Assembly (NCBI GenBank): GCA_964546035.1
Contig: CAZJIO010000004.1
Location: 21,860 to 65,269 of the forward strand
Length of the DNA stretch: 43,410 bases
Reading direction: 5' to 3'
Source of the DNA: an uncultured Eubacteriales bacterium
Lineage (GTDB): Bacteria > Bacillota > Clostridia > Lachnospirales > Vallitaleaceae
Of this stretch, positions 27,553-27,761 are shown one piece after another. The notes beneath the pieces are model-generated. The model ran no database searches, was not told the DNA's origin, and saw nothing but the letters and a program-made list of their open reading frames with translations. Position numbers and translations under genes: made by a program. How positions within the stretch are numbered: the first letter of the stretch is position 1; each line of letters opens with the position of its first letter.

Positions 27553-27581
27553 TTGATTTCTCTATTGACCCGTGATATAAT
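27553..27581 (+). promoter_or_regulatory. nif operon promoter: TTGATT-17-TGaTATAAT (extended -10)
   Basis: Spacing and consensus as read from the sequence; 175 nt upstream of nifH. Confidence 0.5.
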
Positions 27582-27603
27582 CTGTTCATCATCATAAGTT
27601 CAT

Positions 27604-27654
27604 GTAAAGATAACGTGGTCTTTACTACTCAAGCGGTGAGAGCATAGAAGCTCT
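27604..27654 (+). promoter_or_regulatory. ANTAR-type dual-hairpin antiterminator target in the nifH leader (P1 loop AACGUG, P2 loop AUAGAA)
   Basis: P1: GTAAAGAT/GTCTTTAC stem with hexaloop AACGTG. P2: AGAGC/GCTCT stem with hexaloop ATAGAA. Both loops have A at position 1 and G at position 4. The P2 3' arm is shared with the 5' arm of the terminator. Confidence 0.5.
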
Positions 27655-27700
27655 AACAAATCGACATACGTCAAGTGTGGCTATTTGCTAGAGCTTTTTT
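27649..27700 (+). terminator. Intrinsic terminator in the nifH 5' UTR (attenuator)
   Basis: AGCTCTAACAAA ... TTTGCTAGAGCT: 11-bp stem with one mismatch, then TTTTTTGTT, about 55 nt upstream of the nifH start. Confidence 0.6.
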
Positions 27701-27761
27701 GTTATTTCAGAAATTAAAAAAAGTTCTATCACAAATCATTATTTGAAAGGATGGTATGCAA

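Follow-up and report, generated by a model that had tools for sequence, protein, structure and literature searches.

A conserved hexaloop-hairpin attenuator in the nifH leader of a Clostridia-type bacterium, a probable target of ANTAR-dependent antitermination

ANTAR proteins bind a dual-hairpin RNA motif and mostly control nitrogen metabolism (PMC3369931). The published descriptor of their substrates consists of two hairpins of at least 3 base pairs (bp), both with a six-nucleotide loop (hexaloop) that has A at position 1 and G at position 4 (A1/G4), a linker of variable length, and an overlap of the second hairpin (P2) with a terminator (PMC3369931). Linkers of the published seed sequences measure 5-18 nucleotides (nt); lengthening that of eutP to 14 nt impaired control by EutV, a protein for which the C-G closing pairs beneath the loops also matter, as a feature of its subfamily (PMC3369931). 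Nitrogen-fixation genes are among the targets already described. In Geobacter, GnfK/GnfR relieve leader terminators at nifH (PMC2995071), and Table S2 of the descriptor paper lists terminator-overlapping ANTAR matches for several nitrogenase operons: in Desulfotomaculum carboxydivorans they precede 'nitrogenase subunits; two copies of P-II', and in D. acetoxidans, D. kuznetsovii and Geobacter they precede nitrogenase subunits. A further match stands before homocitrate synthase in Clostridium beijerinckii (PMC3369931). In the library that we searched, there was no later literature on ANTAR and nif in Firmicutes, and the control of nif transcription in Firmicutes that lack NifA and carry nifI1/nifI2 has little experimental basis. 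Here we analyse the leader of nifH in a stretch of 43,410 nt from an uncultured Eubacteriales bacterium (contig CAZJIO010000004.1; the whole stretch is hereafter the 43-kb window). This leader is a real, conserved transcription attenuator, and it is probably controlled by a protein of the ANTAR family.

The leader and its surroundings contain the following features, given with the way in which each was located:

27540-27555, plus strand: direct repeat AACTTG-N4-AACTTG, overlapping the -35 (pattern search)
27553-27581, plus strand: sigma-70-type promoter with -35 TTGATT, a 17-nt spacer and extended -10 TGaTATAAT (consensus scan)
27604-27625, plus strand: first hairpin, P1, DNA GTAAAGAT-AACGTG-GTCTTTAC, as RNA GUAAAGAU / loop AACGUG / GUCUUUAC (direct reading)
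27626-27638, plus strand: linker between P1 and P2, 13 nt (direct reading)
27639-27654, plus strand: P2, the antiterminator hairpin, AGAGC / loop AUAGAA / GCUCU, DNA AGAGC-ATAGAA-GCTCT (direct reading)
27646-27700, plus strand: intrinsic terminator, a long interrupted stem followed by U6 (fold and inverted repeat)
27747-27755, plus strand: nifH ribosome-binding site AAAGGAUGG (direct reading)
27762-28580, plus strand: nifH, first gene of the operon (Pfam; start from database identity)

On reading 27300-27950, every coordinate of the two-hairpin and terminator layout that the original prediction had claimed was borne out. The promoter that it had named holds as well, scoring 10/12 with the TG extension in a consensus scan, as the best sigma-70-like site of the region; the predicted start of transcription lies at about 27588-27590. 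As for nifH itself, the start at 27756 of the mechanical open reading frame was rejected, since the ATG at 27762 gives a product of 272 amino acids that is 100% identical to the database protein P0001, and all NifH homologues start with MRQ. The gene therefore starts at 27762, which makes the leader about 173 nt long. The stretch GAAAGGATGG is kept 5' of the nifH ATG in all close orthologues.

P1 consists of eight pairs, the one closing its loop being a U.G wobble, and P2 of five, with a C-G closing pair. A hexaloop with A1 and G4 is present in both, AACGUG in P1 and AUAGAA in P2. The terminator arms are AGCTCTAACAAA (27649-27660) and TTTGCTAGAGCT (27684-27695), which pair with one A.C mismatch, and the T6 tract occupies 27695-27700. 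The pentanucleotide GCUCU at 27650-27654 is used by both the 3' arm of P2 and the 5' arm of the terminator, so that the two structures are mutually exclusive, as had been proposed. The first 71 nt of the predicted transcript (27590-27660), folded as nascent RNA, give exactly P1 and P2 at -16.0 kcal/mol (z -2.4); alone, the two hairpins fold at -7.6 kcal/mol (P1) and -7.8 kcal/mol (P2). The terminator alone reaches -25.9 kcal/mol (z -5.25), a stability found in 0/200 shuffles, and shuffled versions of the complete leader are less structured than the real one (z -3.45). Because the terminator is far more stable than P2, read-through needs a factor that stabilises the latter. Two further pairings concern the same RNA. 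GGUG, the 3' end of the linker, may pair with CAUC at 27590-27593, a helix seen in the predicted fold only. The segment 27671-27700, which holds the terminator 3' arm and the U tract, shows 70% complementarity to 27717-27746, immediately 5' of the ribosome-binding site; in transcripts that read through, these two stretches might pair instead.

The chance occurrence of such an arrangement in the window, both strands included, was estimated with the published descriptor (two hairpins, ANNGNN hexaloops, linker of 2-20 nt). Four dual-hairpin matches have stems of at least 4 bp, against 2.7 expected; for pairs of A1/G4 hexaloop hairpins whose stems sum to at least 13, the expectation is 0.085 per shuffled window, again with both strands counted. 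Among the 72 terminator-like sites of the window, that of the nifH leader is the only strong one with an A1/G4 hexaloop hairpin. No further attenuator was found within the nif operon by the dual-hairpin and terminator scans of the window.

Relatives of NifH at 89-96% identity were collected by protein search, and the nifH leaders of their contigs were compared. Promoter, P1, linker, P2 and terminator are homologous in five other lineages with NifH at 91-96% identity: L163 (HGW-Firmicutes-1), L164 (HGW-Firmicutes-7), L166, L171 and L175. The -35 and TGnTATAAT are conserved in these orthologues. The genes upstream are unrelated and sometimes on the opposite strand (LiaF-like, MgtE, MCP, a hypothetical protein), and since the element is kept all the same, it belongs to nifH rather than to the hybrid-kinase gene that precedes it in the window. 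The P1 loops of the six lineages read AACGUG, AAUGUU, AAUGCU, AAGGUU, AAAGUC and GAAGUC, with G4 and A2 invariant and A1 present in 5/6; the P2 loops of eight leaders read AUAGAA, AUAGGA, GUAGGA, AUAGAA, AAAGAA (twice) and AUAGAA (twice), with G4 invariant, A1 in 7/8 and RWAGRA as consensus. Hardly any variation is seen in the P2 stem and the terminator, and 91% of terminator cells are paired across the eight orthologues. Loop positions 3, 5 and 6 drift while G4 stays fixed and A1 nearly so, which is the ANTAR contact pattern (PMC3369931). Elsewhere in the element, the outer pair of P1 alternates between G-C, A-U and U-A among lineages, the U.G pair closes P1 in the window and in all orthologues of its clade, and the linker measures 13 nt in the window, L163, L164 and L166 and 9 nt in L171/L175. 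The leader of Anaerotalea alkaliphila (L169, 89% NifH) cannot be aligned with the others and is canonical: UAUCG-AAAGAC-CGAUA, a 4-nt linker and AGGC-GAAGGA-GCCU, followed by a terminator. The conservation of the hexaloops in orthologous leaders, on which the original prediction had staked itself, thus came out favourably in the five lineages that keep both hairpins, but not in L167/L168, where P1 has no hexaloop.

The architecture is not peculiar to this clade. In a sample of 160 nifH loci from genomes and metagenomes, where related loci are not fully independent, an A1/G4 hexaloop hairpin lies on the terminator 5' arm in 23 of 71 nifH-leader terminators versus 137 of 3198 other terminators (odds ratio 10.7, p 5e-14). 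Searches with covariance models point the same way. A first model (R1) had as its sole seeds the seven eut sequences that Ramesh et al. give in Fig. S1; over 1.6 Mb, three of its four best matches are nifH leaders (L001, L099, L090). A second one (R2) combined these seven published eut substrates with the nif leaders L001 and L005-L008, leaving out the clade of the window; nasF, amiE and L064/L065 are not among the seeds of the models, as MAFFT misaligned their P1. Of the 31 matches of R2, nine are in nifH leaders, whose share of the searched space is 1.4% (p 3e-10); two of the nine are relatives of the seeds. Its scores on orthologues of the window's leader are 21.4 bits in L171 (E 0.001, the top match in 240 kb), 14.6 in L175 and 10.1 in L164.

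Like the window, L001, L005-L008, L010, L086, L064/L065 and L060, from Bacillota and Actinomycetota, have A1/G4 hexaloop hairpins that compete with a terminator before nifH. The loops of L065 (AACGAG and AUUGAA) are nearly those of the window, and L064/L065 close P1 with G-C. In L001 (153-190), L005-L008 and L086, hairpin 1 overlaps the terminator 5' arm and hairpin 2 is formed from the terminator 3' arm, so that both terminator arms are sequestered; compared with L001 and L005-L008, the window has the classical arrangement with an independent P1. Two tandem hairpin-terminator attenuators per nifH leader are seen in L003 (9748-9866, Clostridium sp. LS) and in L090 (633-855, a metagenome contig).

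Eight of the 160 loci, all more distant from the window, have an ANTAR gene (PF03861) no further than 10 kb from nifH. L064 has a REC-ANTAR protein in its nif neighbourhood and a nifH leader with the canonical dual hairpin; Acidobacteria-type nif loci carry GAF-ANTAR proteins; and the Bacillota loci L009 and L060 encode ANTAR response-regulator-like proteins of about 190 amino acids. The stretch 6802-10001 of L060, a Bacillota metagenome-assembled genome, comprises a dual hexaloop hairpin with terminator (6802-6880), the ANTAR gene, glnK, amtB and nifH. This is a compact nitrogen module in which the ANTAR regulator is physically linked to nif. In L009, a similar ANTAR gene precedes nifH by about 4 kb. 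When the ANTAR protein of L060 was used to look for homologues, only proteins of its own lineage came back, at 52% identity or more; the few with an organism name belong to Acetivibrio, Pseudobacteroides, Herbivorax and unclassified Clostridia.

Taken with the known systems, these observations make ANTAR-dependent antitermination the best explanation of the leader, and we would put its probability at roughly 0.65. The published descriptor fits the leader, the loops are conserved and such elements are enriched in nifH leaders. The regulator, its signal and the direction of regulation we infer as follows. Transcription would start from the extended -10 promoter at about 27589, and P1 and P2 would be the first structures to form in the nascent RNA. 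Unaided, the terminator (-25.9 versus -7.8 kcal/mol for P2) would displace P2, and the polymerase would halt near 27700, in the U tract. When nitrogen is limiting, both hexaloops would be bound, through A1 and G4, by a dimeric ANTAR-domain regulator whose gene would lie outside the window. P2 would thereby be held closed and GCUCU kept from the terminator, allowing read-through into nifH and the remaining nif operon. The model thus predicts an ANTAR regulator elsewhere in the genome.

Several results weigh against this reading. No open reading frame of the window has an ANTAR domain (Pfam), and no ANTAR gene was found within 10 kb of nifH in close relatives. The covariance-model check proposed with the original prediction favours the orthologous family, but the window's own element scores weakly: R1 matched P2 alone (7.3 bits, E 5.6), and R2 aligned 27608-27653 full-length in the predicted register at only 10.6 bits. 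The latter match ranks fifth in the window (E 0.56; 0.0023 in the leader alone). The four ranked above it lie within coding sequence or in a spacer without terminator, and clearly spurious sites are among those that outscore it, such as 35357-35407, antisense in nifB. Rfam 15 gave nothing relevant, either for the whole window at gathering thresholds or for 27400-27800 at E up to 10; its microRNA and small-RNA matches to the terminator hairpin were dismissed as spurious. Compared with the C-G closed AAxGGC of eut sites, P1 of the window has a U.G closing pair and AACGUG, and a model trained on eut alone misses the full element. Loop position 1 is G in P1 of L175 and in P2 of L164. The covariation statistics of the orthologue alignment are not significant, because the stems are conserved within the clade instead of varying. 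In L167/L168 (95% NifH), P2 and the terminator are nearly unchanged while P1 is swapped for an unrelated hairpin with a loop of 4-5 nt, which raises the question whether P1 is needed in this clade. L002, L081, L082 and L172 likewise have P2 and a terminator without a canonical P1.

These last observations are what a regulated attenuator read by some other factor would lead one to expect. Another RNA-binding protein, or a small RNA, would then read mainly P2, with P1 as an accessory or stabilising hairpin. P2 and the terminator are indeed the universally conserved core, P1 being non-hexaloop in L167/L168 and non-canonical or absent in the four other leaders just named, and the missing ANTAR genes near nif in close relatives and the weak score of the window fit just as well. 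But the P2 loops (AUAGAA, AAAGAA, AAAGGC and similar, C-G closed) are the ANTAR consensus, P1 keeps A1-A2-x-G4 in six lineages while its other loop positions drift, and ANTAR genes are linked to nif in other Bacillota. Moreover, judging from a review (PMC12591593) and general knowledge, no other known antiterminator family reads such hexaloops. We therefore regard a factor outside the ANTAR family as unlikely.

The same core, with a P1 that can be swapped, suggests that the regulator may need only one A/G hexaloop. The switch of this clade (the window, HGW-Firmicutes-1 and -7 and their relatives) could then be read by a single-site or asymmetric ANTAR protein or by another RNA-binding protein, acting below a DNA-binding regulator at the AACTTG repeat. 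This is a speculative proposal that we consider quite unlikely; if true, it would supply the nif control circuit that has long been missing for Clostridia without NifA.

More doubtful again is the absence of any conditional switch, in which the terminator would be a constitutive partial stop damping nif, or the hairpins stabilisers of the mRNA 5' end, with hexaloops that are fortuitous. Dual A1/G4 hexaloops do arise by chance, as the four matches with stems of at least 4 bp against 2.7 expected show, and R2 does score spurious sites higher, that in nifB included. Yet an element with an expectation of 0.085 per window is found exactly at the nifH-leader terminator, its loop positions are selectively conserved in orthologues, and the architecture is enriched tenfold at the nifH-leader terminators of the 160 loci. 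An unregulated terminator of -25.9 kcal/mol with U6 before a very highly expressed operon would also seem implausible. Least credible by far is that the terminator belongs to the upstream hybrid-kinase gene, with the promoter a chance match and nifH transcribed from elsewhere: no obvious terminator of that gene (end 27269) is seen on the plus strand in 27270-27550, but promoter, leader and terminator travel with nifH despite unrelated upstream genes, the -35 and TGnTATAAT are conserved, and the 53 nt between terminator and ribosome-binding site hold no promoter-like site.

The operon downstream of the attenuator has the order nifH-nifI1-nifI2-nifD-nifK-nifE-nifN-nifB-fdx-modA-modB-nifV (Pfam), a Clostridia-type layout that extends to 39255. 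In the spacer of 175 nt between nifH and nifI1 (28581-28755), there are two stable hairpins, at 28628-28647 and 28663-28693. Neither has an A/G hexaloop; they may serve in processing or stability and so fix the ratio of NifH to NifI/NifDK. Further downstream, some 2.3 kb from the nif cluster, there is a MerR-resolvase-like gene (41545-42192) that overlaps the first part of an IS605 OrfB/TnpB-type gene (42155-43276), directly after which Rfam identifies a RAGATH-18 RNA (43330-43391, 69 bits). The whole of 41545-43391 looks like a mobile element with a guide-like RNA.

Upstream of nifH, at 24120-27269, lies the gene for a PAS-rich hybrid histidine kinase with two receiver domains, which had been put forward as a candidate sensor of the switch. 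Our data do not support this role: the protein has no ANTAR output, and its gene does not keep company with nifH in the closest relatives, for which reason we rejected it as a partner of the switch. The only other PAS kinase adjacent to nif, a PAS-HisKA-HATPase-REC protein upstream of nifH in L170/L174, is 34% identical to it. The window has five copies of AATTTGAMT, all of them clustered at 27330-27447, in the spacer that separates the kinase gene from the nifH promoter. They are not present upstream of orthologous nifH promoters, and are probably unrelated to nif control. On the minus strand, the same spacer holds a good terminator-like hairpin followed by a run of T (27465-27499), with no minus-strand gene nearby that it could terminate.

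Initiation itself had been described as constitutive, and nothing supports this. The repeat AACTTG-N4-AACTTG at the -35 is the sole match of its kind in the window (0.07 expected by chance) and is kept, with N4-N6 spacing, in the nifH promoters of L163, L164, L166 and L167. It looks like a regulator site: lying outside the RNA switch, it may be bound by a regulator of transcription initiation. Its uniqueness in the window and its conservation in orthologous promoters suggest that initiation is regulated too, and by analogy with Geobacter the control of nif is probably two-tiered.

For NifA-less Firmicutes with nifI1/nifI2, the leader provides a precise and conserved cis element with nucleotides that can be mutated (A27612, G27615, A27644 and G27647). 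More broadly, attenuators made of hexaloop hairpins and a terminator recur, in two layouts, in the nifH leaders of Clostridia-type bacteria. ANTAR control of nif had been presented as a notable mechanism. This claim to novelty does not stand, as such control was shown in Geobacter (PMC2995071) and predicted in the Firmicute Desulfotomaculum (PMC3369931). The value of the present case is confirmatory and practical, not conceptual, because the principle dates from 2010 in Geobacter and its prediction in Desulfotomaculum from 2012.

Among the closest known systems are the substrates of EutV (eutP/G/S/A in Enterococcus and Listeria), NasR (nasF) and AmiR (amiE). Like the window's leader, these have tandem A1/G4 hexaloop hairpins, a variable linker (at 13 nt, ours falls inside the published 5-18), a P2 whose 3' arm lies in the terminator, and a nitrogen-related operon downstream. 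P2 of the window, AGAGC-AUAGAA-GCUCU, is almost that of eutS, GAGC-AAAGAA-GCUC. In contrast, eutV, nasR and amiR stand in or beside their operons, whereas the window has no adjacent cognate ANTAR gene. The Desulfotomaculum sites listed in Table S2 come from genomes shown to encode ANTAR regulators, and belong to Peptococcaceae; the window comes from a relative of Anaerotalea and of HGW-Firmicutes-1 and -7.

Close in function to the explanation that we favour is GnfK/GnfR of Geobacter, where an ANTAR response regulator relieves the terminator of the nifH leader under nitrogen fixation, and where antitermination by GnfR is a second tier beneath initiation control. The setting differs: Geobacter uses RpoN promoters and a conserved CAGGCAANGGCGCC box, which has no match with up to three mismatches in the window's leader, while the promoter of the window is sigma-70-like with an extended -10, in a low-GC, spore-forming Clostridia-type bacterium with nifI1/nifI2. 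Since the box is absent and the promoter sigma-70-like, the leader works like the Geobacter system without belonging to its type of regulon. It adds a good further case to those nitrogen-fixation genes of other bacteria for which such control has been shown or predicted, and is not a new mechanism.

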